A stretch of DNA of 64,000 nt from Okamejei kenojei (GCA_035221665.1 CM069147.1:9734001-9798000), one strand, 5' to 3'. Positions 1,119-60,168 are shown, numbered from the stretch's first letter. Program-made: numbers and translations. Notes: generated by a model not told the origin, from the sequence alone.

Positions 1119-1210
1119 AGTCTGAAGAAGGGTCTCGACCCATAACATCACCCATTCCTTCTCTCCAGAGATGCTGCCTGTCCCACTGAGTTACTCCAGC
1201 TTTTTGTGAC
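1119..1210 (+). mobile_element. Penelope-derived short repeat with degenerate hammerhead core
   Basis: GTCTGAAGAAGGGTCTCGACCC then a mutated GAAAC, followed by the family tail AGAGATGCTGCCTGTCCCACTGAGTTACTCCAGC. Confidence 0.7.
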
Positions 1211-1472
1211 TCTATGACTTTATGACTGTAAGTGATCGCTTCCTCTTTCAATTGATTGAATAGTTACTCTATTGTTACATTTCTAAAGCTCAGCTCGCAA
1301 CTGAAGACTTCCTGGTGCTTTGCCCAGCATAGATGCATAAACAAGTGTGAATGTATTAATGGTCAAGGGCACAACAACTTTCATACCTTCTATGAATGCA
1401 AACGCTGTCATACTTTATGCTCTGAAACTTTAAATGACTGGACTTCCTGACAAGTTATGGTTTGTAGAGTAA

Positions 1473-1761
1473 TGCCCCTGTCCCACTTAGGAAACCTGAA
1501 CGGAAACCTCTGGAGACTTGGCGCCCCACCCAAGGTTTCCGTGCGGATCCCGGAGGTTTTTGTCAGTCTCCCTAATGGTCGAAAGTGGTTTCCGTGTCAA
1601 AAATCGGTAATTGTTTAGTCGAAGCTGGTTGCGATGCTAGTTGAAGGTGGTTGCCAGAGAACAAAAACCTCCGGGAACCTGCGGGAACCGCACGGAAACC
1701 TTGGGTGGGGCGCAAAGTCTCCAGAGGTTTCTGTTCAGGTTTCCAAAGTGGGACAGGGGCA
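1473..1761. mobile_element. PIF/Harbinger-like MITE (long palindrome)
   Basis: ~90-bp inverted arms TGCCCCTGTCCCACTT...AAGTGGGACAGGGGCA flanked by TAA/TTA; same CTGTCCCAC terminal motif as the elements at 22370 and 42165. Confidence 0.8.
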
Positions 1762-2039
1762 TTATGGAGGAAATTTATGTGAAACAAGGCAAAGATGAAC
1801 AGCTTCCTTTCAAGGGCAATTTAATTTTTTTGCAACAATCAGATCTGTTTCCAAATGTGTAATTGTGTCCATCAGCCACGGATCCTTTCATAAGCAGTTA
1901 CGCATCTTTATAATGGAAACCTTCTCTTCCAAATGGAATGAACATTGCCATGGGCCAAAAGGCTATTAATCTATCACTTTGCCGCTGGGTTTACACTGTT
2001 ACACCGTTCAACTCACGCATACTCCCAACTTTTCCACTA

Positions 2040-2290: not shown

Positions 2291-2374
2291 ATGTTGACCC
2301 ACACAATGCCAACAGATCTGTGTTTATTGTAATAAAACAAAGCAGCGGTATGCACACATACATACATACACACT

Positions 2375-3559: not shown

Positions 3560-3580
3560 AGATAGACAGACAGACGGATG

Positions 3581-5270: not shown

Positions 5271-6294
5271 AATAATATAACATGCATTACATGGCACAAG
5301 CAATCAATGGGTCACATTTATGCTATTGTCATGGGAGATTTACATGTGCATATTGAATTGAATTGAATATTTTATTGTCACATGTGACAAGCCACAGTGA
5401 AATTAATTGCTTGCCCACCCAAGGTATGCAAATAGCCGCCACATAAAGGGCACTTATGTTCAGATGCTCTGGCCTGGGAGAGATGTGTCAGACTCCATGC
5501 ATCAGTCTTTGCAACAGTAGCAACATAATCTTAAAAGAGAGAAAGAAAGCCAGATTCATTTAACCAGAAACTTGAAAAGAAAAAGCAACTCATCAAATAC
5601 TCTACATTAGGAAGACGGGTATCAAGGGTGAGAAGGGTAACGCCACCCATTCCTTCTCTCCAGAGATGCTGCCTGTCCCGCTGAGTTGCTCCAGCTTATG
5701 GTGTCTATCGTGAGCATTCAAATACTGGCCTCGGACACATCGGTGCAGTCGGTAGTCAGCATAATCTTATTCTGAGACATCAAGCTACCTGTAAGAAAAG
5801 CCACAGGAGATCTGTCAGATGTATGGAAACAGTATGAAAGTAAATGTTGTGACCCTTTTGAATTATTTTAGCTTATTAAGTCGAACCGTGAGATATTTGC
5901 GCAAGCTTTGCTGGAGTGGTTTGTTGTTTTTGAAATTAAAATGCTGTTTGAAAGCTCAACTGAACAAAGATTATGTCGGAACGTGGCTGCACTACCTAGA
6001 TTTACACCTGAAAGTGAATTATTGATGAGAGCAGGAATTTCAAAGACGCCGGGATCAAAGCTTCTGTAATGAGCAACCAAGTGTTGGATGAAGCCTAACT
6101 TTCATGTAACATATTTTGAGCAAATTTACAACTAGCAATCTGGCACTCGGAAAAGAAAAAAAATAACTTAAATTAGGAACCAAAAACTGGACCCTGTTTA
6201 AATTTCAGCAAGAATCCTGGACACCTTGCAGTAACCTACCGTGACAACCCCAAAGTGGCCCCTAACGGTGTGAAAAAGCTTTCATGGTTAGGTC

Positions 6295-7559: not shown

Positions 7560-7745
7560 GGAACTAGTAGGAAGACTAGGGTGGGAAAAGGGGGGGGGGG
7601 GGGGGGGGGGGGGGGAGTGGTGAGAGAGGGAATGCAGGGGTTATTTGAAATTAGAGAAATCAATGTTCACATCGTTGGGCTGTAGGCTGCCCAAGCGAAA
7701 TATGAGGTTCTGTTCCTCCAATTTGCATGTGGCCTCACACTAACA
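7560..7745 (-). mobile_element. Penelope-like element, GIY-YIG C-terminus and 3' repeat
   Basis: Minus strand encodes KLEEQNLIFRLGSLQPNDVNIDFS. Confidence 0.75.
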
Positions 7746-8400: not shown

Positions 8401-9184
8401 TACGTTTTGCTTCGGCCCACCTGTGTCCGCACCGACCAGCGATCCTCGCACACTAACGTTACCCTACACATACTGGGGACAATTTACAGTTGTACCAAGC
8501 CAATTAGCCTACAAACCTGTACGTCTTTGGAGTGTGGGATGAAAGCGATGATCTCGGAGATAACCCACGCAGGTCACGGGGAGAACGTGCAAACTCCGTA
8601 CGTTCGTAATTTTTCTGGATGAAAGGTGGGGTTGGACCACCAGTTGCCGGAACATCGGTGGTTATTTTCTTCCTCGAGAACATGGGGTCAACTTTGACAG
8701 TGCTGGACATTGTCACGAGAATTACATATCATTGCTTTAAGGTGAGAGGAGCAAGGTTTAAAGGAGATGCGTGCGGCAAGATTATGTTTACACAGAGGGT
8801 TTGTAATGAATAATCATTTTAATGCAATTCACACTTCACGGTGACATGGCCATTTGGTTGTTATCATGCAGCGATCAGTGCTTGTGCGAGGATGTTATAT
8901 TTATATACGAGCAGAGGCGTTTCTTTGCTTTCACCATCTGAGAATGCTTGACTAGGATATGCGAAACACAAAATCACAACAGCAGCATTTTCCCCTCTGC
9001 GGTTTATGGGTGTGGTGATTGTGCTGGCAGGAAAAGAAAGCTTTGGGCCTGTGGCAACAGTGAGCCAGCATGACTAGTTGGCAGCAGGCAACTTCACTCT
9101 TTCCATTTAGGGGGATCTCAGTTGTACTCGGGGAAAGGAACGGGTCAATTGACAAAGAAGAAAGTCAGCAAATCTTCGAAAGCA

Positions 9185-9560
9185 TGACGTTCTTGCTATT
9201 GAGGGAGTGCAGCGTAGGTTCACAAGGTTAATTCCCGGGATGGCGGGACTGTCATATGCTGAGAGAATGGAGCGGCTGGGCTTGTACACTCTGGAATTTA
9301 GAAGGGTGAGAGGGGGTCTTATTGAAACATATAAGATTATTAAGGGTTTGGACACGCTAGAGGCAGGAAACATGTTCCCGATGTTGGGGGAGTCCAGAAC
9401 CAGGGGCCACGGTTTAAGAATAAGGAGTAAGCCATTTGGAACGGAGATGAGGAAACACTTTTTCATACAGAGAGTTGTGAGCCGGTGGAATTCTCTGCCT
9501 CAGAGGGTGGTGAAGGCTGGTTCTCTGGATACTTTCAAGAGAGAGTTAGATAGGGCACTT
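9185..9560 (+). mobile_element. CR1 LINE ORF2 C-terminal fragment
   Basis: QRRFTRLIPGMAGLSYAERMERLGLYTLEFRRVRGGLIETYKII...FFIQRVVSRWNSLP. Confidence 0.95.
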
Positions 9561-9669
9561 CAGGGGATATGCGGTGAAGGCAAGAACCTACACCTACACC
9601 TATTGTCTATTGTTTATTGTAATCTTTCTACTACTGGGGATGCTGCCACTGGGAATAAACTATATCACA

Positions 9670-9991
9670 GTTTAATTTGGTTTAGAGACACAGCGCGGAA
9701 ACAGGCCCTTCGGCCCAGCGGGTCCGTGCCGACCAGCGATCACCGCACATTAACACTATCCTACACCCACTAGGGACAATTTTTACATTTACCAAGCCAA
9801 TTACATTTACCTACAAACCTGTACGTCTTTGGAATGTGGGAGGAAACCGAAGATCTCGGTGAAAACCCATGCAGGTCACGGGAGAACGTACAAACTCCGT
9901 ACAGACAGCACCCATGGGCGGGATCGAACCAGGGTCTCCGGTGCTGCATTCGCTGTGAGGCAGCAACTCTACCGCTGCGCCACCGTGACCG
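9670..9991 (-). mobile_element. HE1-like V-SINE, near full length
   Basis: A box, B box GGTTCGATCC, V core, CR1-like tail ending in (TAAAC)n. Confidence 0.9.
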
Positions 9992-10289: not shown

Positions 10290-10585
10290 AGGACATGGAT
10301 AGTCGACATTAGGGGTCGGGTTTCTTCAGACTGATTGCAGTTGGGGAGCACAGGGGGTGGGGGGGGGGGGGTGGGTTGGAGAAAGCTGGATAACAGGTGG
10401 GGTCAGAACTTTCTAACTTTGCCAGCTTTTTCTTCCCCCCCCCCCCCCACCCCACTACAGTGTCTGAAGCAGAGTCCTGACTTGAAACGTCACCTACCAT
10501 GTCCTCCAGACACGCTGCCTGAACTGACAAGTTACTCCAGCACTTTGTGTTTTACTTAAGATTCCAGCATCTGCAGTTCACTGTG
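10290..10585. mobile_element. Penelope-derived fragments in inverted arrangement
   Basis: Minus-strand CTGAAGA...CCCCTAATGTC at ~10300-10330 and plus-strand CTGAAG...GAAACGTCACC at ~10464-10495 followed by the family tail. Confidence 0.6.
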
Positions 10586-11654: not shown

Positions 11655-11995
11655 CAAAGATAGACACAAAAAGCTGGAGTAAATCAGCGGCAACATCTCT
11701 GGAGAGAAAGAATGGGCGAAGTTTCAGGTCGAGACCCTTATCAACTGGTTGGGGATAAGGGAAACCAGAGATATAGGCGATGATGTAGAGAGATAGAGAC
11801 CAATGAACGAAAGATATGCAAAAATGTAACGGTGATAAAGGAAACAGGCCATTGTTAGCTGTTTGTTGGGCGAAAATGAGAAGCTTGGGTTGGGGAAGGG
11901 ATTGATTGAGCGGGTTTGTCGGGGTTACCTGAAGTGAGAGTAATCAATATATTACCACTGGCTGTAAACTGACCAAGCGAAATAAAGATGAACTA
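11655..11995 (-). mobile_element. Penelope-like 3' region
   Basis: Minus strand HLYFAWSVYSQW (frameshifted HLIFRLGSLQP), pyrimidine-rich 3'UTR and hammerhead-type terminal repeat. Confidence 0.7.
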
Positions 11996-12815: not shown

Positions 12816-13709
12816 TGACTGTCTGACCACAGCGTCTGTGTAGAAAATGACGACAAAATAAACTATTCTCTTCTGCCCGAGTATATTTTCCTCTGTGCAT
12901 CTGTAGAGGTTTGTAAGAGTGAGTAGTGACATGCCAAATTTCCTCAGTCTCCTAAATAAGTAGAAGCAAGTAAGTAATGTTTTGCATCAATATCGTAGTT
13001 TCACAAAAGATCGCTAGTAATTATCTTTGAAACAATTAAGCATTAAAAGGTAATTAAAATCAACAATCAAAAGCACTGTAATTAAAAAATACTCTGCCAT
13101 CTCCTTGTAGAGATGTGCAGGAAGGAACTGCAGACGCTGGTTTAAACCAAAGGTAGACACAAAAAGCCGGAGTAACTCAGGCATCATCTCTGGAGAGAAG
13201 GAATGGGTGGCGTTTCGGGTCGAGAACCTTCCTCAGACGTAGAGAGGATTTGGCAGAACTGAAGGACTTCACTCTGGGTGGCACAAAGGTGCAGCATTGC
13301 AAGGGACTACGAGTGCTGTCTGTGTGGAGTTTATACGTTCTCCCTGGCATCTCCCTCTAATAGTGCTGGAACAAGTAAAGGCAAAGCGTTGCTGCCTGGG
13401 TTCGATCCTGACTTGCTGGCTGTGCGGAGTTTGTACGTAAGATGTGGGTTTTCTTCAGGATTCCCCTCACTTCCTAAAGTGGTGCAGGTTTGTAGGCTAA
13501 TTGGCTTCTGTAAATCGCCACTAGTGTGCAGGGGCGATGGTCTGTGTGGACTCCACATCCATGCTGAACTGAACCAAACTAAACTCAGGGGATCAGTAAA
13601 TAGCTACTGGCTTATACAGGGAGATCAGCTTCAGAGTTAGCGATGGATACGATGACAGAGCTTCATGTTCCAAGACTTACAGAAGTCTCATAAGGCCAGT
13701 AACACCACT

Positions 13710-15780: not shown

Positions 15781-17149
15781 TGCACTTAGATGAACTTAGT
15801 CACTTAGTTCAAAGACATTTGGTATGTGGGACCAATTTTGTCCTTGCCATCAATGTTCATAACCAGTGAAACACCTTTAAAAAAGGGGACATTAAGACTG
15901 CAAGATTCATGGAAATTGCCAGGGAAAGTCAGTTTCTTTGCACGATACTTCATTACGAGAGCTGGGAACGGTGCCATAAAACATGGACCAGTGCAGCACA
16001 GGAACAGGCCCTTCAGCCCACAATGCCTGTGACAAACATGATGCCAGGATGCACTAATCTCATCTACCGATATGTGATCCATAGCCCTCTGATTCCCTGC
16101 ATTTTCATGTGCCTATGAAAAAGTCTCTTAAAAGTATCCTAATGTTGTAAAACGCCTCCTGATGTCATAATTCCTCTCAAACTTGGTTGCTCATCCACCT
16201 CTGTATATTTGAAAGCACTCACACTTTGGAAGCATTGATGGAGGTAGCAATGAGCTAAAGGCATGTGTTGTGAGTGTCAATAGACAATAGACAATAGGTG
16301 CAGGAGTAGGCCATTCGGCCCTTCGAGCCAGCACCGTGTCGGCTAATGCTGAATTATTGGATGAGATTTTCAAAGGGCAGCAAGTAGCTTTCAAGAGACT
16401 TTCTGACCATGCCTCTCATAATGTTATACACTTGTATCAGCCTACGAAACTCCAGACAAAACAACCCAAATTTGTCCAAATACTTCTCATGGCTAATACA
16501 CTTCAATCCAGTTCTGCAGCTAAATCTTTGGGGGAAAAAACATAATTAAAATCCTATAAAGCATACCGGGCAGGTGGGACTGGTGTAGCTGGGACATATT
16601 GGCCGGTGTGGGTAAGTCGGGCTGAAGGGCCTGTTTCCACACTGCATCACTCTATGGCGCTGTGACTCTAGCCATGCTCTGGAGCTCATACGCATTTGAA
16701 GTGTCTGCAATACCTGCAGATGGTTCCTGCTGATGATTATTCACTGTATAATGAACTGTTCAGTACGTGGGTCAGCTTGTAGTGTGATGTTTCCACAACC
16801 AGTGCAAACGATTGTTCAGATTGAATTTTCAGCAGTTTGCAATTTGTGCTTAAAATGCTGTGATCTTTAGCACCTATTAGCTGTGAAAGAAACAACCCAG
16901 AGGAAGAGACACTAAGTGTTGGAATAACGCAGCGTGCCAGGCAACATCTCAGGAGAACATGGAAAGGTGACGCTTCAGGTTGGAAGAAGGGTCCCGATTC
17001 GAAAGGTCACCTGTCCATGTTCTCCGGAGATGCTGCCTGACCCGCTGAGATACTCCAGCACTTTGTGCCATTTAAAAAATCTAATCTGACCCAACTCAAA
17101 CGCATCAGTACACGCCAATTTCATTGAGATGCCAATACGAGTCAGACTT

Positions 17150-20330: not shown

Positions 20331-20691
20331 CGGCACCACCTCCGTATTATCCAGACCGTACAACTGTACATCCAGCGGCATCGGTCCGCCTGTACCAGCA
20401 CTGCAACTTACTTCTGAAATGGGTACTCTGCCAATGCCGACACCTCCTCCGCCTGTGCCAAAGTCCCCTGTTTCATCACCGGGAGTGCCGTTTCAATCTC
20501 GGCCACCAGTCTTACCGCCAACTCTGTTCCCGGCGGCGTAAAACGGAGATGGTCTTTATCGCACAGGTGCTGGTCATGTTTGCAAGCCCGCTGTGAAGTA
20601 CCCGGGCTATGTTTGACTTTCCTCCAGCTTATTATCAATGGCTATGCATGCTTTAGTTAGTCAATGGCTTTGTACTGACATTTAATTCTTT

Positions 20692-22571: not shown

Positions 22572-22938
22572 TTAGATGTAGCTCTTAGGGCTAACGGAAT
22601 CAAGGGATATGGGGAGAAACGGGGTACTGATTTTGGATGATCAGCCATGAGTGCTGGCTCGAAGGGCCGAATGGCCTACTTCTGCACCTATTTTCTATGT
22701 TTTAATATTTACTAAACACTTCCACTGTATCTGAGATGCTTATCTAACATGTATCTAAGTGCTTTTGTATAGTGACACTTGCACTGAACTGCATACAAAA
22801 ATGAATCTCACTGTACCTCAATACATGCGACACATAAAGTACCAATACTAATGAGTAGGAAGTAACTGCATTTGGTAGACACAAAAAGCTGGAGTAACTC
22901 AGCGGGACAGGCAGAATCTCTGGAGAGAAGGAATGAGT

Positions 22939-22966
22939 GACGTTTCGGGTCGAGACCCTTCTTCAG
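22939..22966 (-). ncRNA. Minimal hammerhead ribozyme core within a Penelope-derived inverted module (~22855-23003)
   Basis: Minus strand CTGAAGA A GGGTC-TC-GACCC GAAAC GTC. Confidence 0.55.
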
Positions 22967-29208: not shown

Positions 29209-29240
<32 letters not shown>

Positions 29241-29345: not shown

Positions 29346-29349
29346 TTTA

Positions 29350-39837: not shown

Positions 39838-40165
39838 TAAACCATTCAGTCATTTCATCTTTCGGAAAAGATTGAAACAAAGAACTGCAAATGTTGAATT
39901 ACAGAAAAAGGCCGCAAAGAGCTGGAGTAACTCAGTGGCTCAGGCAACATCTCCGGAGAACATGGATAGGTGACATTTCAAGTCCAGACCCTTCTTCAGA
40001 TGCCTGAAGAAGGGTCTGGACTTGAAATGTCACCTATCCATGTTCTCCAGAGATGCTGCCTGACCAGTTGAGTTACTCCAGCACTTTGTGGCCTTTTTCT
40101 GTAATTCAACATTTGCAGTTCTTTGTTTCAATCTTTTCCGAAAGATGAAATGACTGAATGGTTTA
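39838..40165. repeat. 328-bp palindrome (162-bp arms, 4-nt loop) centred on a Penelope-derived inverted dimer
   Basis: TAAACCATTCAGTCATTTCATC... / ...GATGAAATGACTGAATGGTTTA; loop ATGC at 40000-40003. Confidence 0.9.
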
Positions 40166-44112: not shown

Positions 44113-45939
44113 CCTAGTCCTGCAAGTCCTCTCAACCCATTGACCAAGATCATGACTGATATTCTTCCTCAGCATCATTTCCCAGCTCTGTCCTCATAGC
44201 TTACGGCCATAAGACATTGGAGCAAAATGAGGGGCCATTTGACTCATCGAGGCTGTTCCGCCATTCAATCATGGCTGATCCGTGTACCTCCCTCAACCCC
44301 ACTCTCCTGCCTTCTCCCCGTGACCTTTGATGCCCTAACTAATCGAGAACCTGTCAATTTCCATCGGAAAGACACCCAATGACGTGGCCTCCACAGCCGT
44401 CTGTGGCAATGAATCCCACAGATTCACCACCTTCTGGCTCAAGAAATTCCTCCTCAGCACCATTCTAAAGAAACCGCGGGGTCCCTAATGCCAGACTTCT
44501 ATCGATCTCTGGTGAAACATAAAGTGCTGGAGTAGCTCAGTGGGTCAGGCAGCATCTCTGGAGAGAATGGATGGATTACATTAAAATAAGTACAGAAAGT
44601 CCGACTTTAAATCAGAGAATGAACACAGATCAATTACCTTATTGTCTGCCATTCTCCTTTCACATGTCTGAAGCCGCCTTGAATAGTATACAATCTAAAC
44701 TAATATTAATAACGAGAGCAAAGGTTTAAGGTGAGAGGGGCAAAGTGTAAAGGAGATGTGTGGCGTGTGTGTTTTCACACAGAGGGTGATGGGTGTCTGG
44801 TCTAGGCTGCGTAGCTGTGGCACAACTGGGAGAGTTGCTGCCTCACAGCGCCAGAGTCCTGAGTTCGATCCTGACCTCGGGTGCTATCTGTGTGGAGTTA
44901 TGGATTTAAGAGAGAGTTGGATAGAACTCTAGGGGCTAGTGGAGTCAAGGGATATGGGGAGAAGGCAGGCACGGGTTATTGATAGCGGACGATCAGCCAT
45001 GATCATATTGAATGGCGGTGCTGGCTCGAAGGGCCGAATGGCCTCCTCCTGCACCTATTTTCTATGTTTCTATGTTTCTATGCTCCCCGTGATCGCGTGG
45101 GTTTTCTCCGGGTGTTCCGGTTTCCACCTCGCATCCAGAAGATGTGCGGGTTGGCGGGTTAATTGGTGTCTCAGTAACATTCCCCCCTCATGTGTAGGGA
45201 GTTGATAAAGAAGTGAGATAACATGGAACTCGTGTGAATGGGTGATCGATCGACTCGGTGGGCCAAACGGCCTGTTTCCATGCGGTGTCTCTAAACTAAA
45301 CTCTAAATGCTGCCAGGAGTTGTGGTGGGGACAGAAGAGATAGTGGGATTTAAGAGTCTTTTAGATATGATCATGGAGAAGCAACAAATGGAGGGATATG
45401 GATCACCATCAGGCAGAGATGAGTTGGCTTCATGTTCACGATGTACATTGTGGACTGAAGGGCCTTTCATAGACTCATAGAGTCATAGAGTCTTACAGCA
45501 TTCTGTCCAGTCCTCTCAACTGTCTCTTCTGGTAGATTAGCTGTCGGTAATATGAAGCTGATTTTCAATGATAGCATGAATGTATTTTTTACCACTCTGT
45601 GCAAAATAATTTATTTCAACAGCTCCAAAACATACACTGTCTACTCACGTACAATCTTACTGATTTTATCTGTGGTATTTGTAAAATCTTGTCATGATTT
45701 TATTGTCAGCCCCTATAGATTGTTTTGCATTAAAAAGTGTAATAAGAGCTTAATGAAATCTGTTTTACTGAGGGGCATGTATGCTCGTTATATATAATTT
45801 ACAACATTCAACTTTGGAAATTCATAGATCATCTGTTTTTTTTCTGATAAGTATATTTTCCACATATTTGACAGCACAACCGCATAGATCTGCCAGTCCA
45901 TTTTTAATAGAACAAAGAGCAGGGAAAGATGCAAGATTC

Positions 45940-47019: not shown

Positions 47020-47280
47020 TCCTAGTGAGGCCACACACACACACACGTTGGAGGAGAAGCAACTCATATTTCGCTTGGGCGGCTTACACCTCAGCGGTAT
47101 GAATGTTGATTACCCTAATTTCAAGTAACTCCCGCATTCTTCTCCCCCCCCCCCCTCATCCCCGTCCTGCACCCTAGTCATCCTACTAGTTCCACTGTTC
47201 GCATCCTTTATATCCCTGTCGTTAGAACATCTTCCCCAGCCAACAATGGGCCATTCCTGCAGTCGTTTGCTGCCAGTCCT
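47020..47280 (+). mobile_element. Penelope-like GIY-YIG C-terminal fragment
   Basis: LEEKQLIFRLGGLHLSGMNVD. Confidence 0.75.
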
Positions 47281-48162
47281 GTTCATGGGTTCACAGGTGA
47301 GAGGAGCAGAATTCGGACATTCGGCCCATCAATTCAATCATGGCTGATCTATCTTCCCCTCTCAACCCCATTCTCCTGCCTTCTCCCCATAATCGCTGAC
47401 ACCCCGTACTAATCAAGAATCTGTCAATTTCCACCTGAAAAATATCCATTGACTTGGCGCTCCACAGCCTGTGGCAATGAATTCCACAGATTCGCCACCC
47501 TCTGTCGAAAGAGATTCTTCCTCATCCCCTTCCTAATGGTATGGCCTCTGATCCTAGACTCTCCCACTCGTGGAAAGAACCTCTCCACATCCACTCTATG
47601 CAGGCCTTTTTTGTTCTGCCCTTCTCTGCCTTTCAGTCTGAAGAAGGGTTCTGACACGAAACGTCACCTATATCTTTTCTCCAGAGATGCTGCCTGACCC
47701 GCTGAGTTACTCCAGCATTTTGTGGCTATCCTCGATGTAAGCTTCCAAGACAATTATTCTTAGTGGATGCCGTGATAAGAACATTCTAATATCATCATCA
47801 AAAACACAACTTTTCAGACACCTGTTAAAAGAGAAAATTAAACATTAAGTTTTAGTTTTTAGTTGGTTGAGAAATGCTCTTTGGCCCACCGAGCCCACAC
47901 CGGCCAGCGATCACTTGTACACAAGCTCTATGTTATCCCACTTTTCATATCCAACACACGAGAGGCAATTTACAGAAGCCAATTAACCTACAAACCTGCA
48001 CGTCTTTGGTATGTGGGAGGAAACCAGAGCACCTGGAGAAAACCCAAGCGGTCACAGGGAGAACGTACAAGCTCCGCGCAGACAGCACCCGTGGTCAGGA
48101 CCGTGCCATCCAATGTTAAATAGATCGGATCTCACTTACTACCCGCTCTCCTTCCCACAACA

Positions 48163-49059: not shown

Positions 49060-49192
49060 AAGTCTGAAGAAGGGGTTCGGCCCGAAACGTTGCCTATTTC
49101 CTTCGCTCCATAGATGCTGCCGCACCCGCTGAGTTTCTCTAGCATTTTTGTCTACCTTCAATTCTCCAGCATCTGCAGTTCCTTCTTGAACC
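49060..49192 (+). mobile_element. 133-bp hammerhead-bearing Penelope-derived element with TSD
   Basis: GTTACCTGCTG at 49049-49059 and 49193-49203; CTGAAGA (49064) A GGG...CCC GAAAC GTT. Confidence 0.8.
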
Positions 49193-49582: not shown

Positions 49583-50515
49583 CTCTAACTTCAAGTAGCC
49601 CCTGCATTCCCTGTAGAGAAGTTACAATTCTTTTTGCAAATAAATTACTCTTTTTTTTAGTGTTGGATAGCCAACCATTTATCATGAGGATAGACTGATA
49701 GTCTGAAGAAAGGCCTCGACCCGAAACGTCACCCATCCCTTCTCTTCAGAGATGCTGCCAGTCCCGCTGAGTTACTCCGGCATTTTGTTTCATTCGTCAG
49801 TTTAAACCAGCTGTTCGTTCTCATCTCGCTACAGGTAACAATGACTCTTTTCCTTTATCATCGTTACTTTCTTGAATATTTTTAATTCATCTGTTGTATA
49901 TCTCTCTCCATCATATCTCTTGTAAATCTCTCGTTTCCCTCTCAGTCTGAAGAGATATCTCGACCCGAAACGTCACCCATTCCTTCTCTCCAGAGATTCT
50001 GCCTGTCCTGCTGAGTTACTCCAGTATTTGTTACTCCAGCAGTTTAGAACCAGCTTCTGCAGTTCCTTCCTACACGTCTCTCTCCATTCACCGTTTGGCT
50101 GGGAATGATAAACGGATTCGCCAGCGAAGCTTCCCGTTTGACCTTTGCTTCTGTATTCAGGACATCACTGCTCTCTGTTGCCTTCAAGTCCTTAAGCCAA
50201 CATAGTTTATTCACATTTAGAAGCGGAGCATCCTTAGGGAATTGCAGGTGCTGTGAATTTTACCTGGAGGGAAGATGAACATTCCCAGGTCACCCGAGAA
50301 TCAACTCTGACACAAAGCAATTTACTGCGTCTAAGATACTCAACAGTCACAGCCTTGGGACTAACTTTGATTTTAATAGCAGTGTTATGGCAGCGTAGCG
50401 GGTGTATTACTCGGAGTGATATTCAGTCAATCAGACAGCGTTAGTGGACAAAAAATTGAATTAATGTACCAGGTCAGGAGCCCTGCGTTAAACCTCAACT
50501 CAACAGCAGACCTTT

Positions 50516-50543
50516 CTGATGAAGGGTTCCAACCCGAAACGTC
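50516..50543 (+). ncRNA. Minimal hammerhead ribozyme core (CTGATGA variant)
   Basis: CTGATGA A GGGTT-CC-AACCC GAAAC GTC. Confidence 0.55.
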
Positions 50544-50617
50544 ACCCATTCCTTCTATCCAGAGGTGCTACCAGTCCCGCTGAGTTACTCCAGCATTTTG
50601 TGTCTATCTTCAGTTTA

Positions 50618-52029
50618 TTTATTTTTTTAATATATATTTTTATTAGAGTATGTAGGCAGTGACTTAGCAAACACATGTTATGATAGCAATATTTTGTGTA
50701 CAACAGTCATACATTATTAATATTGTCAAGTGAATCATTTTGACTCTAATAATTTTTTTTTTAAAGAGAGAAAAACAGAAAGAAAAATAAAATAAAAATC
50801 AACATCAAAAAAGAAAATCATAAAGAATGGAATAATTTACTATTAATACATCATAGGAGATAAGATCAAGGAATATAGAATATAACTTTTCATCTAATCC
50901 TGAGTCCAAGTTTCAGTTAGGTTCCCCTGCTGAAACCATTCTACCCTTTTAAGTAATCAATGAAAGAAGACCATGTTCTAACAAAGAGTTCTTGTTTGTC
51001 CATTAGGGCAAATCTGATTCTTTCCAGGTGTAGGGTCTCCAACATTTCCGTAATCCACATTTTAATTGTGGGGGATATAGGGCCTTTCCAAGATTTTAAT
51101 ATTAATTTCGTCCCCATTATTATACTGTAATCTAGGAAATTTCTTTGACTTGTTGTAAGAGTTAAACTTTGTTCTGATGTTCCAAGTATTATTAGTTTTG
51201 AGTCCGGATCCAGTTTAGTATTAATAACTTCAGAAGTTAGTCTAAAAATCTCAATCCAGAAATTCTTAATTTTTATACAATTTGCAAAAGTATGTGTTAA
51301 ATTAGCCTCTGGATGCTGACATTTATCGCAGATAGAGGATATCTGTGGAAAGATTCTATTCAATTTAACTTTGGAGTAATGTAATCTATGTAATACTTTA
51401 AATTGTATAAGAGCGTGTCTGGAGTTTAGCGAGCATTGATGTATATATTGTAAACTTTTGTCCCATATAACTTTCGTTATGGATTGATTTATTTCATTTT
51501 CCCATGTATTCCGTCGATGGTATCTCGCTATCTAAAAGGGTATTATAAATATAAGTTGTTAATTTTTCTGTATTAGGATGCTTATTCAGACATTCATCAA
51601 GGATATCTGGTTCCTTATTCCTATAATCTTGTGTATTTGATTTAACATAATCTCTGAGTTGTAGATTTCGAAAAAAAAGTATTTGAGTGTATTCCATAAA
51701 TCTGTTGCAGTTCCTGAAATGAAAGATAAGTGCCTTTCTTATAAAGGTGTTCCATCTTTTTGATTCCATAGTTTTTCCATTGTATAAAGCCTTTATCCAG
51801 CATGGAAGGTTTGAATAAGGGATTGTTTACAATAGGGAGACACAGTGGTATATTATCCAATTTTAAAGCCTTTTTAAGTTGTTTCCAGATTCGTGTACCA
51901 CTATATATTATAGGGTTTTCCCTATAGGTTTTTTTATGCAATTTTGTCGGTGCAAATATAATCGAACCGATTTCAAAAGGTAGACAATCCTCCTTTTCCA
52001 TCCTTAACCAGTCTGGTTGCTGATCCATT
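50618..52029 (-). mobile_element. 5'-truncated L1-clade LINE with TSD
   Basis: ORF2 C-terminus CDKC...LTHTFANC...FW (cysteine-rich domain), AATAAA and A-rich tail; TSD TCTTCAGTTTA at 50607-50617 and 52030-52040. Confidence 0.9.
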
Positions 52030-52113
52030 TCTTCAGTTTAAACCAGCATCTGCAGTTCCTTCATACACATCAGACCTTTCAATTGAAAGATGAAAGATTA
52101 TCAACCTGAAACA

Positions 52114-52430
52114 GGTGCGGCACAGTGGCGCAGCGGTAGAGTTGCTACCTCCCAGCGCCCGAGACCCGGGTTCGATCCTGACCACGGGCGCTGTCTGTAC
52201 GGAGTTGGTGAGTTCTCCCCGTGGCCTGCGTGGGTTTTCTCCGGGTGCTCCGGTTTCCCCCCACACTCCAAAGACGTCCAGGTTTGTAGGTTAATTGGCT
52301 TCTGTAAATTGTCCCTGGAGTGTGGGATAGAACTAGTGTACGGGATGATTATTGGTCGGCGCGGACTCGGTGGGCCGAAGGGCCTGTTTCCACGCTGTAT
52401 CTCGAAACCAAACTAAACTAAATTAAAATA
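52114..52430 (+). mobile_element. HE1-like V-SINE, full length
   Basis: A box TGGCGCAGCGG, B box GGTTCGATCC, V core, (TAAAC)n. Confidence 0.92.
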
Positions 52431-52861
52431 AACTTTCCCATAATGGCAAAGGCATTGGAAAGTTAATGACATAGAGTTTATTGTCAAAAATGGGTTCAGG
52501 TTTATAAAGTTGACCACTATTTATGCACATGTAGCAAACAGCTTCAGGTAAGGGGCATCATGTGCCAGTAAATGAAAGATTGTGGTGGTTTTAATGGTAA
52601 TCATCAATTAAACTTGTCACAGAGAGCTTTCTGCTGTGTATATCTTCACTAGGAGGATCAATTCAGGCAAGTCCTGTTTTATTTTAATCAAAGTCACCTG
52701 ACTACTCTGCCCCTATAATAGTATTTTATCATGTAGAGAGTTTTTTCCCTTGTCTCAAAGTGGTGCTGCTAAATTAATATACTCCATTTACTGTTCACAT
52801 CAGAGTCCTCGCTGTGTGGACGAGAAATAATGTAATGGTTTAACAACATTTAAAATACATT

Positions 52862-54797
52862 GGGGGGTCCTAGTAAGACTGATAGGATCTTGGCCCACTT
52901 GCAACAGCTTAAGGGCGATATATTTTTTATTCAAGAGGCCCACCTTCGCAACAGAGAGGTAACACGGCTTAAGAGAGGCTGGATTAGCCACTTATTTCAT
53001 TCGAAATTTAATGATAGGGCTAGAGGTGCTGCTATCCTGATTCGTAAAAACGTTATGTTCGAACCACAGGAAACTGTGGAGGACCCTGCTGGCCGCTTTG
53101 TCATGGTTTCTGGCAAACTGCAAGACACACCTGTCATAGTGGCCAGTATTTACGGTCCCAACTGGGATGACAGCTCATTTGTAACCAAATTCTTTACATC
53201 TCTCCCAAACATTGAAAATCACCACGTCATTGTGGGTGGAGATTTTAATCTGGTCCAAGACCTTACACTGGACAGATCTTTGAACAAAGCCTCTACTTTA
53301 ACTAAATCAGGTAGGACTTTGCATGCTTTTGCCAAACTACTTGGGCTCACAGACCCATGGAGACATACATTTCCCACGACTAAATTATTTTCATTTTTTT
53401 CCCACGTGCACCGCACCTATACCCGTATAGACTTCTTCCTCTTAGATAACGGACTGCTCTCCAAAATCAAATCCAGCGAGTATCATAGTATCGTGGTATC
53501 AGATCACGCTGCGACTTCCCTCGATCTCCACTTTCGTAAACGAACTAACCCCTTTAAACAGTGGAGGTTCAACTCCTCATTACTAGCAGAGGCTCACTAC
53601 TAGCTATTCTTGCACTCCCAAATCATTTTATATTTTGAGCTGAATGACTTGCATTCGGACATAGAAAGAGGTATACTCTGGGAAGCTTCAAAAGCCTATA
53701 TTAGGGGCCAACTTATCTCTTTTGTCTCCAACCTGAAAAGAGCCGAGACGTCCCAAATGACAGACCTGTTACGAAAAATAAAGGACATTGATGACAAATA
53801 TGCATCTGACCCAGACCCTAATTTTTATAAAGAACGCCTTGGGTTACAAACAGACTTTGACCTCACGTCTACTAATAAAGCCAAGCTACGACTGCTTAAA
53901 TCTAGGCAACACTTTTTTGAATCTGGGATAAAGTTGGGAAGTTTCTGGCCTATCAGGCCAGAACCGAGGTGACTTCACGGCTAATCCCAGCCATTAGATC
54001 TAGCTTAGGGGAGATCCACACTGATCCTCTTAGAATTAATGAAGCATTTTGCTAAATTCTACGCTGAACTATACGCTTCCGATTGTCCTCCCCACTGCAG
54101 ATGACATGCTCCGTAGTTTGACGTTTCCCCGAATTGACGATGAAGCCAACGAGAGACTTGGGTGGCCCATAACCGTTGCTGAGGTCCAAGCAGCCATCAC
54201 ATCATTGCAAAGCGGCAAGTCGCCAGGCCCTGACAGCTTCACTGTAGAATATTACAAAGCTTTCCCTGCTCTCCTCGCACCTGTCCTGAGAGATATGTAC
54301 AATGAGGCGTTTCTACATCGTCGCCTACCGCCCACCTTGTCGTGGGCTACTATTTCCCTAATTCTTAAAAAGGGGAAAGATCCCCTGCTTTGTAGTAGCC
54401 ACAGACCAATTTCACTCCTGAATGTGGACCTCAAAATCCTCTCTAAAGACCTCGCGGCCCGGATAAATCTGGTCAAGATGGTCGTCCTACCCAAATTCCT
54501 GTATCTTTTCCAGCACGTCCCTATACTTATCACTAAATCTTTTTTTGACAAATTAGGAAGGAGAATATCTAAATTTTTATGGGGTAGCAAACCGGCTAGA
54601 ATTCGAAAGACGATACTACAGTCTCTTAAGAGTGACGGCGGTTTGGCACTTCCTGACTTTAGGCGATACTATTGGGCAGCTAACTTGCAAAAAATCTTGT
54701 ATTGGATGAATGATGATTGCAACCACCTCGTGGGTACACATGGAAAAGGCGAGTTCACGTCTCCCGTTGCGGTCTGTTCTATGCTCCAAGCTCCCCA
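52862..54797 (+). pseudogene. L1 ORF2 remnant: APE endonuclease plus partial RT with an internal deletion
   Basis: IQEAH, IYGPN, GGDFN, RIDFF, SDH (APE); KSPGPDSF, RPISLLNVDLKILSK joined directly to RINLVKMVVLPKFLYLFQ..GGLALPD; stop at 53601 and frameshifts. Confidence 0.92.
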
Positions 54798-55400
54798 GGG
54801 TACTAATTGTGGATGATCAGCCATGATCACATTTAATGGCAGTGGTGGCTTGAAGGACCGAATGGCCTACTCCTGCACCTATTGTCTATTGTCTATTAAT
54901 ATGGGGAGAAGGCAGGGGAATGGGGTTAGGAGGGAGAGATAGATCAGCCATGATTGAATGGCAGAGAAGCCCAGATGGGCCAAATGGCCTAATTCTGCTC
55001 CTATCACTCATGATCTTCTGATGATGATGATCAAGTCTTGGGCTGCACCGCCTGAAGTCTGGTCCACAAATAACATGGTGGTTTTCCAAAGGCTGAGAAA
55101 GTGTTGTCAGAATCGCTGGAAATAGAAATAGTGAAAAAACATTTAAATAATTAATTTTAAATAATTTAAAAATATTAAACATGTTTTTAAATGTTCAAAA
55201 CACATTCAAATTATGTGCGGGGGTTACACAAATTATGTGCATTTGTTTTAAATATTAATATGAATTAAAATAAACTTTAAAAAGACATGTGAGTTTTTTA
55301 TTCCAATTAGTTCCGAAGATAGCCACAGAAAGCTAGAGTAACTCAGCGGATCAGGCAGCATCTCCGGAGCAAAGAATAGGTGATGTTTCAGGTCAAGACC

Positions 55401-57198
55401 CAGGGCCGTCTTAGGGGGTGCGGGGCCCAATTGGGAACAATGTTGGTGAGCCCCAAGTTCCCAGCCAAGGTCTGTCAGCCCAGTTAATTAGTATATATTA
55501 TGAAATTATATACTAAGGTGCTATGGATTATACACCGTCTGAATCTCTCCGGCTCCCGTCTGACTGTCAGTACCTCCGCTGGCTTCCAACCTTTACCGTA
55601 GCAGCTAATTACCATTAAACTGCATTATGTGATTGGACACAATGCCCTTGGAGACAGCGGCTGATTGGACGGGAGGAGACCTATTTGATGATTGGACAGG
55701 AATTTTAAGGCAAGGTGGTTGTTAATTGGACGCAACCCCCTTAGAGAAAGCGATTGATTGGCCGCCAAATAATCAGGCACAAAATAATTGACAAATAGGA
55801 AAACAAAAATTGCTGTTCAGAGCAGACTCAGTGGACTATCTGGCTGTATCTCCAAACTAAACAGTATAACATACAGGTACATTCATTTAAAATAAAATTC
55901 AGTGATTATTGCTTGATTTAAAGCTAGTGTAAAGCTCAGTATCTGACCAATTTCTGTTGAACAAGTTTGGTCTGACGTGAGCATTTTTCTCTCCCAAAAC
56001 AGTTCATATCTTGCAATACGATCAACGAACCAGACAGCACTTGAACGCAGTCATGTGATTAGCAAGCGATTGATAAGACTTGATGGGGCACCCTGAGCTT
56101 TATCGCATTAGTAGTATTAGGGTCAAGTTATTCTCTCATTTGTTCCCATACAGTCTATGGGTATTGTGTTTACACGCCTGTTATGCTGCTGCAAATTAGA
56201 ATTTCATTGCTCTGTTGAGTGTACTCGTGACAATTATACATTGTTGACTTGACTCTTCACTCATGCATTTGTGCAATAGAAAACGGGTGATCATTGCACT
56301 CTGCGCCAAGTTAAAAAGAGTCAGCAGTTAGTCAGGAAGTGACTATTCGCCTCCAAAGAGAAACCCTTTGTTAGGTGGCTTCACTAAATGGTGTGATTCA
56401 ATATTCCTCCAGCAGTTTTTTTTTTGCTCGATCTGTAGCATCTGCAGTCGCTTGCGATTTAGTACTATGTTCATGCTGAAGCACACACAGCATTGAAATG
56501 CGAATACGACAATTAGCAAGAATATTGAACAATACAGTAACATGTAGCTCAGAGGACACTGGGGTTTAATTTTACAAATGCCCATTTTCACGAAGCAAGT
56601 CACTTTTGGCAACTATGCCAGTTTTTAAGAAGACAGACTTTTGCACTGACCACTTGAAAATAAATCAGTGGTTAACTGGCAATGTAAATGTGATGGTGTG
56701 CCTGCCATCAAAGCAGTAGGCACCGTGGGAGGAAGGTAGGGAGTGGGAGATGAATGTGGACGGACAGGGGGTGAAACAAAAAGATGAAGAGCTGGTTTCA
56801 GTCCAACAGCAGTACAAAACTTGAAACAGCTGGTCACAGGGCTAAGAGGCTGAAGTGCTTCAGGCTGCTGTTGGACTGAAACCAGCTCTTTATCTTTTTG
56901 TTTCACAGAATCACTTCAAGCCCGGTCTCTGCATTATAAGTGCAACATGAACCGTGATGGAAATTGGTTTTAGGAACTAGGGGTACGCTGAGGTCCATGA
57001 GGCTGAGGTTGGGAAGGAAGGGGGGGGGGTAGATGCAATAAGCCCCCCATGAGAAATTTTGAGACAAAAAGCTGGAGTAACTCAGCAGGACAGGCAGCAC
57101 AGCGACTCTGGAGAGAAGAGAGGGAGTGAGAGAGCTAAAAAGAGACGAGATGGGGAGCGGGAGAGAGAGAGCCGAGAGAGAGAGCACGAGAGAGAGAG

Positions 57199-57239
<41 letters not shown>

Positions 57240-57801
57240 GGGAGAGAACGAAAGACAGAGAGACACAACGTGGGTCGGTAGGTGAATGACTAAACTGCAC
57301 ATCAAGAATAAGCTCCTTCTCACAGTCCGGAGCCTTCAATCATCATGGTGAGTTTTAAGAAATTCTCAATGTGTCATCAATGCATCGATTAACATTCTTC
57401 AGTAAATGTAATTGTGTTTTGAACAAGTATTATTGACGCCGCGTGAATTTTATTCAAAGGAACGCGGTGTTATTAATACTTGTTCAAAACACAATTACAT
57501 TTACTGAGGAATGTGGATCGATGCATTGATGACACATTGTATAATTACTTATTAACTACTGGCTGTTAACAAGTGCTAACAGTAGTAGTTAACAAATCGT
57601 TTGTGTCTGATGGCCGTGCAGTAGTTGTTATCCATGTTCGTTTTAAAAGAAAATCCGGATGGCGAATGTTTTCAAAAAAATCTTTATTTAACAAAGCGAA
57701 TTCGTATTTCCATACGAAATACGGAACAATAGTGCGGAGCCCCCCTTAGGCGCAGGGCCCAATTGGGAGCAATCGGTCCAATCGGCTTAAGGCCGGCCCT
57801 G
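55401..57801. mobile_element. Non-autonomous hAT (Tip100/MER45-like TIR) element, 2.4 kb
   Basis: TIRs CAGGGCCGTCTTAG / CTTAAGGCCGGCCCTG; 8-bp TSD TCAAGACC (55393-55400) vs TCGAGACC (57802-57809); host Penelope repeat rejoins across it; subterminal CCCAATTGGG and ATTGGAC motifs. Confidence 0.8.
57367..57539. repeat. Internal inverted repeat, ~78-bp arms (copies at 60405-60577 and 63438-63611)
   Basis: CAATGTGTCATCAATGCATCGAT...CCGCGT / ACGCGG...ATCGATGCATTGATGACACATTG. Confidence 0.9.
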
Positions 57802-60168
57802 TCGAGACCCTTCACCAGACAGGTTAATTGATTTGTGTAAATTACCTCCGAGTGTAAAAAGTGGGATACATGGAACTAAACAGATGAACTACATCAAGGT
57901 TGGCACGGACTCGGTGTGCCGAAGCGCATGTTTCCACGCTGTATCTCTAAACTAAACTGAACTAAAACTCCACGATGGTCGGTGTAGATTCGATGGGCCG
58001 AAGGGCCTGTTTCCTTGTTGCATCCCTAAAACTAAAAGCTAAGAACAAACCACATTGTTTTTCATAGTCTCTATTAGAATAAAAATGTACTACAAGTATT
58101 ACTACGTAAAACGAACAAGTATTAAATTCAGTTTACAACTTGACTAAAAAATGTCCTGTACAGACAGCGCCCAGGGTCTTTGTCATTTCTGCTAATGTTC
58201 AGAGCTCACCTGAACAACATTTGACCGTTTCCATTTCACTTGACGAATGTATTAACACGGGGTAGGTAGGTGGCTCCATGGTCACATTTCGGTACTTGTA
58301 TTCAGAAGCCTGATTCATTCATCCAGTGACATAAAATGGAGTTCCAAGTCATTTAAATTCAAGCAGTTAATTACATGTGAAATGAAAAGCTGGTATCAGT
58401 AATGGTGACCATCAAACGACTGATCATATTTAAAACCATCTGGTGCTCTTTAGGGAATAAATATGCCATCTAAACTTGGTTGGGTCCACGTGTATCATCT
58501 GACCCACGGCAAAGGCATTTATTTTTAACTGCCCACTGAATTCGCCTGGTCAGTTCAATTAGTTTTAGTTTAGTTCAGGGATACAGCACGGAAACACGCC
58601 CTTTGCTTCATCTACTCCACGCCCACCATCAATCACCCATTTACACACGTTCTATGTCATCCCACTTTCTCGTCCACTCCCCACAAACCTCGGGGTAATG
58701 TTTACAGAAGCCAACGAGCCTGCAAACCCGCACGTTTTTGGGATGTGGGAGGAAACCGGAGCTCCCGGAGGAAATCCGCGCAGTCACGGGGAAAACCTGC
58801 AAACTCCACATGGATGGCACCCGAGGTCAGGATCGAACCCGGGACTGTGGAACTGTGAGGCAGCAAGAGGTGCCACAGTGCTACCTTCTGACTGGGAATG
58901 GGACCTGACCTGTGGTGCTGAGAGCGCCAAATCCTAACCACAAAGCCACCTGTTCAATTACACGCATGTTATCAAGTGTACATTAGAGGCAGAAGAATCA
59001 ATGGGAAATTGGGGAGTGTTTGAGAGGGGTTCACTTATAGGGAAATGAAAGTGGATAGGTCTCCTCTGCTGGGAGCGATTGAATAAGACTTGATGGGGCA
59101 CCCTGAGCTTTATTGCATTAGTAGTATTAGGGTCAAGTTATTCTCTCATTTGTTCTCATACAGTCTATGGGTATTGTGTTTACACGCCTGTTATGCTGCT
59201 GCAAATTAGAATTTCATTGCTCTGTTGAGTGTACTCGTGACAATTATACATTGTTGACTTGACTCTTCACTCATGCATTTGTGCAATAGAAAACGGGTGA
59301 TCATTGCACTCTGCGCCAAGTTAAAAAGAGTCAGCAGTTAGTCAGGAAGTGACTATTCGCCTCCAAAGAGAAACCCTTTGTTAGGTGGCTTCACTAAATG
59401 GTGTGATTCAATATTCCTCCAGCAGTTTTTTTTTTGCTCGATCTGTAGCATCTGCAGTCGCTTGCGATTTAGTACTATGTTCATGCTGAAGCACACACAG
59501 CATTGAAATGCGAATACGACAATTAGCAAGAATATTGAACAATACAGTAACATGTAGCTCAGAGGACACTGGGGTTTAATTTTACAAATGCCCATTTTCA
59601 CGAAGCAAGTCACTTTTGGCAACTATGCCAGTTTTTAAGAAGACAGACTTTTGCACTGACCACTTGAAAATAAATCAGTGGTTAACTGGCAATGTAAATG
59701 TGATGGTGTGCCTGCCATCAAAGCAGTAGGCACCGTGGGAGGAAGGTAGGGAGTGGGAGATGAATGTGGACGGACAGGGGGTGAAACAAAAAGATGAAGA
59801 GCTGGTTTCAGTCCAACAGCAGTACAAAACTTGAAACAGCTGGTCACAGGGCTAAGAGGCTGAAGTGCTTCAGGCTGCTGTTGGACTGAAACCAGCTCTT
59901 TATCTTTTTGTTTCACAGAATCACTTCAAGCCCGGTCTCTGCATTATAAGTGCAACATGAACCGTGATGGAAATTGGTTTTAGGAACTAGGGGTACGCTG
60001 AGGTCCATGAGGCTGAGGTTGGGAAGGAAGGGGGGGGGGGGGGGGGTAGATGTTATAAGCCCCCCATGAGAAATTTTGAGACAAAAAGCTGGAGTAACTC
60101 AGCAGGACAGGCAGCACAGCGACTCTGGAGAGAAGAGAGGGAGTGAGAGAGCTAAAAAGAGACGAGAT

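Follow-up and report, generated by a model that had tools for sequence, protein, structure and literature searches.

Copies of a short repeat opening with a hammerhead-like motif are scattered over the 64-kb stretch of Okamejei kenojei DNA analysed here (the window), which raises the question of what the repeat is and how it came to be dispersed. Its sequence identifies it as a pLTR, the terminal repeat of a Penelope-like retrotransposon that is young and of Neptune/Nematis type. Where the original prediction implied a separate ribozyme-bearing short repeat family, we consider it probable that the window repeats are 5'-truncated insertions of an autonomous element encoding a reverse transcriptase (RT) and a GIY-YIG endonuclease (EN), likely run-off cDNAs primed near the RNA 5' end, with a motif that is conserved between subfamily consensuses, decays neutrally in copies after insertion and is only predicted to cleave. 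The family is ordinary in kind, though its copies have fixed starts and ends that likely record the element's copying mode.

More than 20 occurrences on both strands had been predicted, and blastn returned 38 merged matches on both strands of the 64-kb window; nhmmer likewise gave 38 matches, 37 of them at 25 bits or more (best match in reversed sequence, 5.1 bits), and 37 copies of the pLTR repeat are counted. Positions are numbered from C3 of the CUGA core (+1). The 4.1-kb parent begins with a pLTR whose hammerhead occupies +1 to +28, followed by a body to about +93 and a 33-nt tail to about +128; downstream of the tail come an ATG at +163, the RT, a Zn finger, the GIY-YIG domain, a pyrimidine-rich UTR and a pLTR. 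The copies and remnants in the window are:

1122-1211, plus: solo pLTR stub, +1 to +90 (blastn, nhmmer)
5639-5709, plus: stub starting inside the hammerhead, at about +23 (blastn)
7560-7730, minus: GIY-YIG C-terminal remnant running into the pyrimidine-rich 3' UTR, of which only the beginning is present, and not followed by a hammerhead; approximate bounds
10464-10579, plus: old-subfamily copy with tail and upstream UTR
11657-11901, minus: copy with damaged core, preceded by about 160 nt of UTR
13123-13236, minus: solo stub with tail
16907-17069, both strands: head-to-head pair (arms 16907-16982 minus, 16983-17069 plus)
22847-23006, both strands: head-to-head pair, exact core 22939-22966 in the minus arm
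23708-23820, plus: solo stub with tail, damaged core
25223-25316, minus: copy with upstream UTR
26732-26794, minus: stub without hammerhead
27083-27175, plus: old decayed stub (nhmmer)
28551-28645, plus: solo stub
29020-29353, plus: longer truncated copy with broken GIY-YIG C-terminus, UTR and hammerhead 29253-29280 (GUU cleavage triplet); approximate start
30179-30267, minus: old stub
31278-31369, minus: solo stub with 14-nt target-site duplication, beginning 1-2 nt before the core
31430-32157, plus: longer copy with GIY-YIG C-terminus, UTR, hammerhead at 32038 and tail, split by the pair 31582-31796; approximate start
31582-31796, both strands: head-to-head pair nested in the copy 31430-32157, tail only on the minus arm, 8-nt duplication AATATTGA on both sides
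32708-32799, minus: solo stub
34852-35063, both strands: head-to-head pair, plus arm with exact core 34944-34971 and tail
39226-39408, both strands: head-to-head pair of an older subfamily
39838-40165, both strands: head-to-head pair with 162-nt arms, 95% complementary, tail on both (atypical)
44517-44582, minus: stub without most of the hammerhead
47040-47736, plus: GIY-YIG C-terminal remnant, UTR broken by other sequence, hammerhead at 47638; approximate start
49064-49190, plus: tailed solo stub with 11-nt target-site duplication, helix II G.G mismatch
49703-49815, plus: solo stub with two helix II mismatches
49947-50067, plus: copy with tail and upstream UTR
50516-50610, plus: solo stub, its core 50516-50543 intact (helix II of 4 bp, UCCA loop)
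55315-55400, minus: 3' part of a copy into whose helix II a DNA element of 2.4 kb is inserted, the 5' part being 57802-57822
57061-57129, minus: decayed fragment, repeated at 60078-60146 and 63113-63181 through a 3-kb tandem triplication

The Penelope origin proposed for the repeat is borne out by parents encoding both RT and GIY-YIG. Their open RT-to-GIY-YIG frame of 803 aa carries the motifs DKG, DVQSLY, QGVAMG, YIDD and YIGET; Pfam recognized RVT_1 (E 2.9e-6) and GIY-YIG (E 0.0025) in it, each slightly below the curated cut-off, and CNRKKCNTC ahead of the GIY-YIG domain forms a CX2-5CxxC finger between RT and EN, as in clades Neptune and Nematis. Homologues of the protein are unnamed or 'uncharacterized', and no related protein was found among solved structures. 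A GIY-YIG query gave 150 scored genomic matches, every one at 99-100% identity. GIY-YIG remnants (LEEQ/LEEK..IFRL) had been said to lead into the longer copies in the window; those at 29052, 31521 and 47069 (plus) do run into a hammerhead copy, but the one at 7700 (minus) does not. Two pLTRs in direct orientation, together with a duplication of about 25 nt, mark a copy of the parent; direct repeats of 117 nt lie about 4 kb apart at locus L116, and locus L114 holds a 1-kb partial tandem. Coverage of the parent climbs steadily toward the 3' end in a 1-Mb sample. The element shows the traits of EN+ Penelope-like elements, namely an RT plus GIY-YIG frame, direct pLTRs or partial tandems, a 30-40 nt tail at one end and an inverted 5'-truncated copy. 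As far as the available text of the sources on Neptune/Nematis-type elements goes (10.1101/2021.04.23.441226, PMC3846280), the C-terminal GIY-YIG, CX2-5CxxC finger and strong 5' truncation are shared, as are partial tandems, the inverted 5'-truncated copy and a tail usually at one end. Target duplications are mostly 10-17 nt here against 8-10 bp in rotifers (Craig et al. 2021; Arkhipova et al. 2013, PMC3846280), and the family here has about 1.2 million copies and a sharp 5' pile-up at the hammerhead edge which was not found described in that text.

The very high copy number that had been expected is confirmed: sampling gives an estimated total of about 1.17 million copies genome-wide, mostly decaying, and a direct count of exact 28-nt hammerhead cores gives 72,524, compared with about 4,000 in coelacanth and about 9,000 in Xenopus in the text available of PMC4209133, where descriptors differ. 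Its 92-nt core by itself makes up about 3.4% of the genome as sampled, which puts it among the major repeats. The stubs might alternatively be a separate non-autonomous, ribozyme-driven element (a retrozyme or SINE) amplified via its own small circular RNA. The near-fixed ends and duplicated targets of most copies are in keeping with this explanation, and a pLTR origin has been proposed for animal (non-LTR) retrozymes, whose type I hammerhead, like the one here, is related to those of PLE pLTRs (Li et al. 2026, 10.64898/2026.07.22.740005, a survey whose available text places one chondrichthyan among the sampled genomes). Retrozymes, however, form tandem arrays and are defined there by two or more units in tandem, every unit bearing a complete hammerhead, whereas the copies here are dispersed solos and inverted pairs, with only nine same-strand neighbours among 463 copies and no tandem array within the window. 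Moreover, the cleavage site is spanned by the copies instead of being their start, and young-subfamily stubs agree letter for letter with the parent pLTR across 53 nt and make up a continuous series of lengths with it. We disfavour a separate element as very improbable.

The anatomy of the motif agrees with the predicted minimal type I hammerhead with an ACGU palindrome, a class (min-HHR) that Cervera and De la Pena (2014, PMC4209133) described from metazoan Penelope-like pLTRs. CUGANGA and GAAA..UH, an extra nucleotide after A9 and a G10.1-C11.1 pair are present, and the ACGU palindrome (15.2/16.2), which allows a dimeric helix III, is found in all subfamily consensuses, the dimeric duplex being predicted at merely -3.1 to -4.1 kcal/mol. 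According to the available text of that paper, the lack of a true helix III, the palindromic 15.2/16.2, the extra nucleotide between 9 and 10.1 and G10.1-C11.1 are shared features, as is the occurrence of mainly solo truncated copies; opposite-strand pairs 100-700 bp apart were already described. A strict minimal-hammerhead descriptor retrieved four window copies (22966 minus; 29253, 34944 and 50516 plus) and none in five shuffles of 464 kb. Comparison with the Rfam hammerhead models, by which the prediction could be checked, gave no match at E<=1 in the window or at E<=10 in 34920-35010; Rfam matches to miRNA models, located on inverted repeats and below the gathering score, were rejected. 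All five cores singled out as the best are present (22939-22966 minus; 34944-34971, 49064-49091, 49703-49730 and 50516-50543 plus), two of them with helix II mismatches (G.G at 49064; A.C and C.A at 49703), and the full motif as first written is matched exactly by only two copies. The proposed 5-bp helix II with a 2-nt loop falls under the 3-nt minimum for a hairpin loop, copy 50516 folding as a 4-bp stem with a 4-nt loop; helix II is of 4-5 bp here versus 7-8 bp in S. mansoni (PMC4209133).

Helix I had been suspected of being very short and activity accordingly doubted, and it is indeed of 2 bp, against the 4-5 bp of the min-HHR criterion and of the S. mansoni families; since 2 bp is also found in D. 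virilis (PMC4209133, available text), this is a described variant of the PLE hammerhead. Its third position is an A.C mismatch that pairs in 20% of copies, and U at -1 is retained in 44 of 44 copies with unrelated UTRs, its partner at +29 being A or G. It is conceivable, at somewhat less than an even chance, that the hammerhead of this lineage is catalytically dead and retained solely because it belongs to a module that acts as a promoter or binds protein. The 2-bp helix I and its mismatched third pair are suggestive of such a loss, as are predicted pairing probabilities of 0 for helix I and at most 0.03 for helix II in four contexts, the lack of an excess of 5' junctions at the cleavage site, and the fact that hammerhead mutants of PAc, a Poseidon element from Anolis (PMC11167929; Frangieh et al. 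2024), insert in vitro all the same. Against it, no subfamily departs from the others in any catalytic nucleotide, in the extra A or in the palindrome, recurrent changes preserve pairing (U.G wobbles), helix I in an older relative family is of 4 bp and has U-A replacing G-C (hand-picked rows, probably one event), and the D. virilis Penelope hammerhead, with its equally short helix I, was weakly cleaved in a version with elongated helix III. Folding of single copies was no better than that of shuffles (z -0.93 to +0.24). Predictions place the active fold 5-8 kcal/mol higher than the fold of minimum energy, in agreement with the PAc hammerhead, which is assisted by protein.

The helix II covariation put forward in the original prediction did not stand: over 233 copies, eight compensatory double changes were counted where stratified shuffles gave 12.8 +/- 3.2 (p = 0.96), and the GGGTT/AACCC case concerns the innermost pair (positions 13 and 16), where G16 lies in a CpG and decays to A in 31 of 229 copies. 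The hammerhead core decays neutrally in inserted copies, like control positions (divergence 5.8% vs 6.7%). Across six k-means subfamily consensuses the core is identical save loop position 14, and +29..+48 is variable; +49..+79 is as conserved as the core, so the conservation of the latter does not point to catalysis in particular. Between families, ten hand-picked rows show one change in helix I and several wobbles. As a ribozyme discovery the locus is of little weight, min-HHRs in Penelope terminal repeats having been published since 2014. A literature search on a Penelope/hammerhead family in sharks and skates found nothing, and the whole words 'Penelope' and 'PLE' are absent from one shark-and-ray genome preprint; the family may be listed in Repbase, Dfam, PMC4209133 or preprint supplements.

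The value of the locus, a modest one, lies in insertion anatomy, a very young, high-copy family supplying insertion-end statistics that bear on the PLE mechanism, including the origin of the pLTR, tail and inverted arm and the role of the hammerhead. Head-to-head pairs, tail and target-site duplications were absent from the original prediction. The 3' ends of 92 young copies fall at +88..+99 (60 copies) and +122..+140 (29 copies), and target duplications of at least 9 nt flank 39/200 solo stubs versus 5/200 controls. In 249 less-diverged copies, 5' stops per nt amount to 0.106 at -5..+2, 0.017 at +3..+24 and 0.007 at both the cleavage site (+25..+31) and -40..-11, boundaries at -5/-6 being possible artefacts where no reference UTR fitted the subfamily; these copies show no pile-up at the cleavage site of the kind that cleavage would have left as a fossil trace. 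Thirty-five of the 92 young copies stop 0-4 nt ahead of the core and only 12 in the following 55 nt, while 45 reach at least 60 nt upstream, indicating that template through the 5' edge of the core is common. The pile-up is spread over about 5 nt, and 23 of these 35 young copies do not reach the A at -3; no single start nucleotide is therefore pinned.

We tentatively read the stubs as fossils of the Penelope replication cycle: the RNA would begin 1-4 nt ahead of the hammerhead, a dimeric RT-endonuclease would prime both nicks with a different fixed RNA site per strand (+93 and +128), and most cDNAs would terminate by run-off at the 5' end, as strong-stop DNA does in LTR elements. By analogy with PAc, the protein would bind its own RNA near the ORF start and nick both DNA strands, and reverse transcription would begin internally at two sites, here +93 and +128 (PMC11167929, available text). 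Most cDNAs would end 0-4 nt before the CUGA core, yielding stubs of about 95 or 130 nt, because the commonest template would start there (candidate initiator TCAGTC); longer copies would require a template that is read through, in tandem or circular, or else a jump onto the RNA 3' end. The hammerhead is predicted to cleave weakly, only as a dimer or helped by the element protein, and cleaved RNA is predicted not to be the main template. In the same text PAc shares the pLTR hammerhead, two 3' ends a 30-40 nt tail apart and cleaved RNA that is not evident as template; it differs in that its ORF starts within stem II, against a candidate ATG 163 nt past the core start here, in that the protein here carries a CX4CxxC linker finger, and in being known from biochemistry where the present element is known from sequence. 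As PAc is of the Poseidon clade, with an ORF start inside the hammerhead, its mechanism is carried over by inference.

Alternatively, the 5' pile-up of the same element could be a processed RNA end or roadblock instead of a transcription start; a 5'-to-3' exonuclease might stall where the module is folded or bound by protein, or CAG|T might serve as a splice acceptor. The scatter of stops over +1..-4, the pyrimidine tract and CAG before the core in UTR-bearing copies (C at -4 in 91%, A at -3 in 82%, G at -2 in 93%), a D. virilis Penelope intron terminating at the helix I 5' end and the predicted pairing of the module's 5' end with the tail end are consistent with this alternative. We regard it as unlikely, short young copies having no common upstream exon and being preceded, by eye, by duplicated target, a few extra bases or an inverted arm.

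Where the two nicks both prime, each would use one site, to give a single head-to-head insert with one tail. Among the 463 copies, head-to-head pairs number 69 and tail-to-tail pairs one, and exactly one arm is tailed in 51 of 59 pairs (expected 29.5, p = 1.6e-7). Pairs could instead arise by self-priming (snap-back), with the tail from later endonuclease resolution (PMC3846280, available text; PMC8557442); many junctions do lie, by eye, at short palindromes such as CAG-T-CTG or ACGT, and a few pairs (4/59; in the window, 39838-40165) carry two tails. An arm copying a longer first strand cannot acquire a tail, but as a rule it is the shorter arm that has one (27 pairs vs 9, with 15 roughly equal), and in one young case (L260) the inverted arm is the tail alone, so that snap-back appears quite unlikely. 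Two-nick priming with run-off at the RNA 5' end would, if true, unite pLTR, one-sided tail and inverted arm in one scheme and leave more than 70,000 intact hammerhead cores, well over the coelacanth and Xenopus counts in the available text of PMC4209133. We note that one RNA-library contig runs from the core into upstream UTR; contigs cannot show ends and DNA is possibly present, and it was given no weight. Depth over the element in assembled contigs drops from the 3' end, as expected under 5' truncation.

The repeat is dispersed through the window, with 37 copies at ≥25 bits (the reversed sequence reaches 5.1 bits at best), and the five hammerhead cores named in the original prediction (22939-22966 on the minus strand, 34944-34971, 49064-49091, 49703-49730 and 50516-50543) were all found. 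The exact motif quoted for it matches only two window copies. A strict hammerhead descriptor is passed by four window copies and by none in five shuffles of 464 kb; no hammerhead model matching the repeat was found in Rfam. The very high copy number that had been proposed is borne out: 426 copies in 999 kb of sampled genome (100 samples of 10 kb each, placed at round-number coordinates over 40 large contigs and unweighted for contig size) scale to 1.17 million copies in the 2.76-Gb genome (bootstrap 1.0-1.34 million). Genome-wide, the 28-nt core pattern has 72,524 exact matches and a 53-mer taken from the youngest subfamily has 21,213, the reversed control giving 0 in both cases. Figures quoted in PMC4209133 are ~4,000 hammerhead motifs for coelacanth and ~9,000 for Xenopus.

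The assignment to the Penelope family likewise stands, as a parent with an RT and GIY-YIG frame and direct pLTRs was found. Its longest frame (803 aa) holds RT motifs, a CX4CxxC finger and GIY-YIG. The closest named homologues of the element's protein are in cartilaginous fishes (65-69% identity), which makes a host from that group likely. The parent loci include L116, which spans the complete 4.1 kb, with direct pLTRs and a ~25-nt duplication, yet is frameshifted, and L114, a partial tandem. On these features the element looks like an EN+ PLE of the Neptune/Nematis type, following the definition of Craig et al. (10.1101/2021.04.23.441226). A GIY-YIG query piece from the sample returned 153,274 first-look candidates genome-wide, and the 150 that were scored are all 99-100% identical, so the family is young. 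We note that in the N-terminal third of the ORF, as seen at L114 and a further parent locus, L101, a helical region at the N-terminus is separated from the RT by a long stretch rich in proline, serine and alanine; with it the coding span reaches ~3.6 kb.

The hammerhead motif in the repeat belongs to a known kind, the minimal hammerhead of PLE pLTRs described in PMC4209133, with which it has in common the extra A after A9, G10.1-C11.1 and an ACGU palindrome that would form helix III in a dimer. The literature consulted also took in PMC11167929, PMC3846280, PMC2377424, PMC6155905, the Craig preprint and the retrozyme preprint. Among the 233 near-complete copies scored, out of 463, the core letters are intact in 101, core plus helices II and III in 47, and these together with a 2-bp helix I in 30. 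Divergence amounts to 121/2083 (5.8%) in the core versus 265/3929 (6.7%) in the control, CpG loss is strong, and copies decay neutrally after insertion. Helix II covariation, which had been claimed, did not emerge among copies (8 compensatory doubles against 12.8 expected); the change offered as its example, at 50524-50535, concerns the innermost pair, which is more plausibly taken for part of a 4-nt loop. In a recurrent variant, two helix II pairs become U.G wobbles. Across subfamily consensuses the core is invariant except for loop position 14, whereas variation is seen in +29..+48 and in the UTR (numbering starts, as +1, at the C of CUGA, hammerhead C3, and the predicted cut comes after +28); since +49..+79 is as constant as the core, this constancy is no proof of catalysis. 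The active fold is predicted to lie 5.3-7.8 kcal/mol above the minimum-energy fold in four contexts. For PAc, the Poseidon element of Anolis, PMC11167929 describes a hammerhead that cleaves only with protein and is dispensable for insertion in vitro. We lean towards the view that the hammerhead of the repeat cleaves under some condition.

In a rarer, older related family (L054:9640(-), L060:5873(+), L271 and L273), helix I is 4 bp long and loop II has 3 nt. U-A replaces G-C in its helix I (four hand-picked rows, likely one event), and its pattern has only three exact matches genome-wide.

In 249 less-diverged copies, 5' stops pile up at the edge of the core, at a rate of 0.106 per nt at -5..+2, falling to 0.067 in the adjoining -10..-6 bin and to 0.003-0.017 in bins farther off; no excess of stops was found at the cleavage site in these copies. 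Of 92 young copies, selected for a perfect +1..+53 and thus excluding truncations inside it, 35 reach no farther than 0-4 nt before the core, 12 stop in the next 55 nt upstream and 45 run at least 60 nt upstream. Many UTR-bearing copies have TCAGTC at the 5' edge of the core, which we take to resemble the initiator (Inr) consensus and which also resembles a splice acceptor. The parent's candidate ATG lies at +163, and in L116 and L114 (around +160) this candidate start codon sits inside AAG|GTATG, a splice-donor-like string; together with CAG|T at -4..-1, it could delimit an exon of 160 nt in which the hammerhead and the tail would lie. Published work reports Inr-like motifs in rotifer pLTRs and, for D. 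virilis Penelope, an internal promoter that includes Inr and DPE.

Young copies have two 3' ends, at +88..+99 (60/92) and +122..+140 (29/92), with 3/92 elsewhere; the difference is the known PLE tail, here 33 nt, and the ends match the two start sites of PAc. Neighbouring copies among the 463 are oriented head-to-head in 69 pairs, tail-to-tail in one and on the same strand in nine, and the window holds six head-to-head pairs. Where both 3' ends could be scored (59 pairs), 51 have one tail, four none and four two; of the 12 pairs flagged at young loci, 11 are single-tailed. In an uncontrolled count, 18/59 pairs have at least 9 nt common to their outer flanks (in two or three of them the match lies inside the tail), and many pairs are therefore probably single insertion events. 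Simple snap-back from the longer arm would not produce the usual pattern, in which the tailed arm is the shorter (27 pairs, versus 9 longer and 15 about equal). A tail usually at one end and frequent inverted copies already appear in published PLE accounts; the pair and tail counts and the arm-length test come from the present analysis. We propose that both DNA nicks may prime internally near the RNA 5' end and that cDNA would run off at that end, producing stubs, the hammerhead being perhaps weak, assisted and off the main insertion path. In the window pair at 39838-40165, both 162-nt arms carry the tail and ~30 nt more, which points to duplication by a later fold-back and away from twin priming.

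Other elements in the window are as follows.

Other elements in the window (strand where assigned)
9153-9773: open frame
18159-20541: broken LTR-retrotransposon pol fragment in several frames, RT-RNase H by Pfam
50941-54816, both strands: LINE fragments matching AP endonuclease, RT and zf-RVT
55401-57801: 2.4-kb element interrupting helix II of one copy; short terminal inverted repeats (CAGGGCCG)
56065-64000: 3.0-kb unit in three tandem repeats, mostly 98-100% identity
56771-56906, 57367-57539 and their repeats: two MITE-like long palindromes, near-perfect, with arms of 42 nt and 78 nt

The frame at 9153-9773, in which Pfam matched nothing, resembles a CR1-type LINE 3' end, and we take the LINE fragments to be L1-like. 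The 2.4-kb element has an 8-bp target duplication (7/8 matching) and, going by the 8-bp duplication rule, is assumed to be hAT-like. The tandem triplication is either a recent duplication or an assembly artefact. Sub-threshold Rfam miRNA matches are caused by the palindromes and were rejected. Outside the window, the frames at L048:5087-7167 seem to us to resemble a DIRS-type element (with RT and tyrosine recombinase); a young Penelope copy is inserted in it, flanked by a target duplication of ~12 nt.
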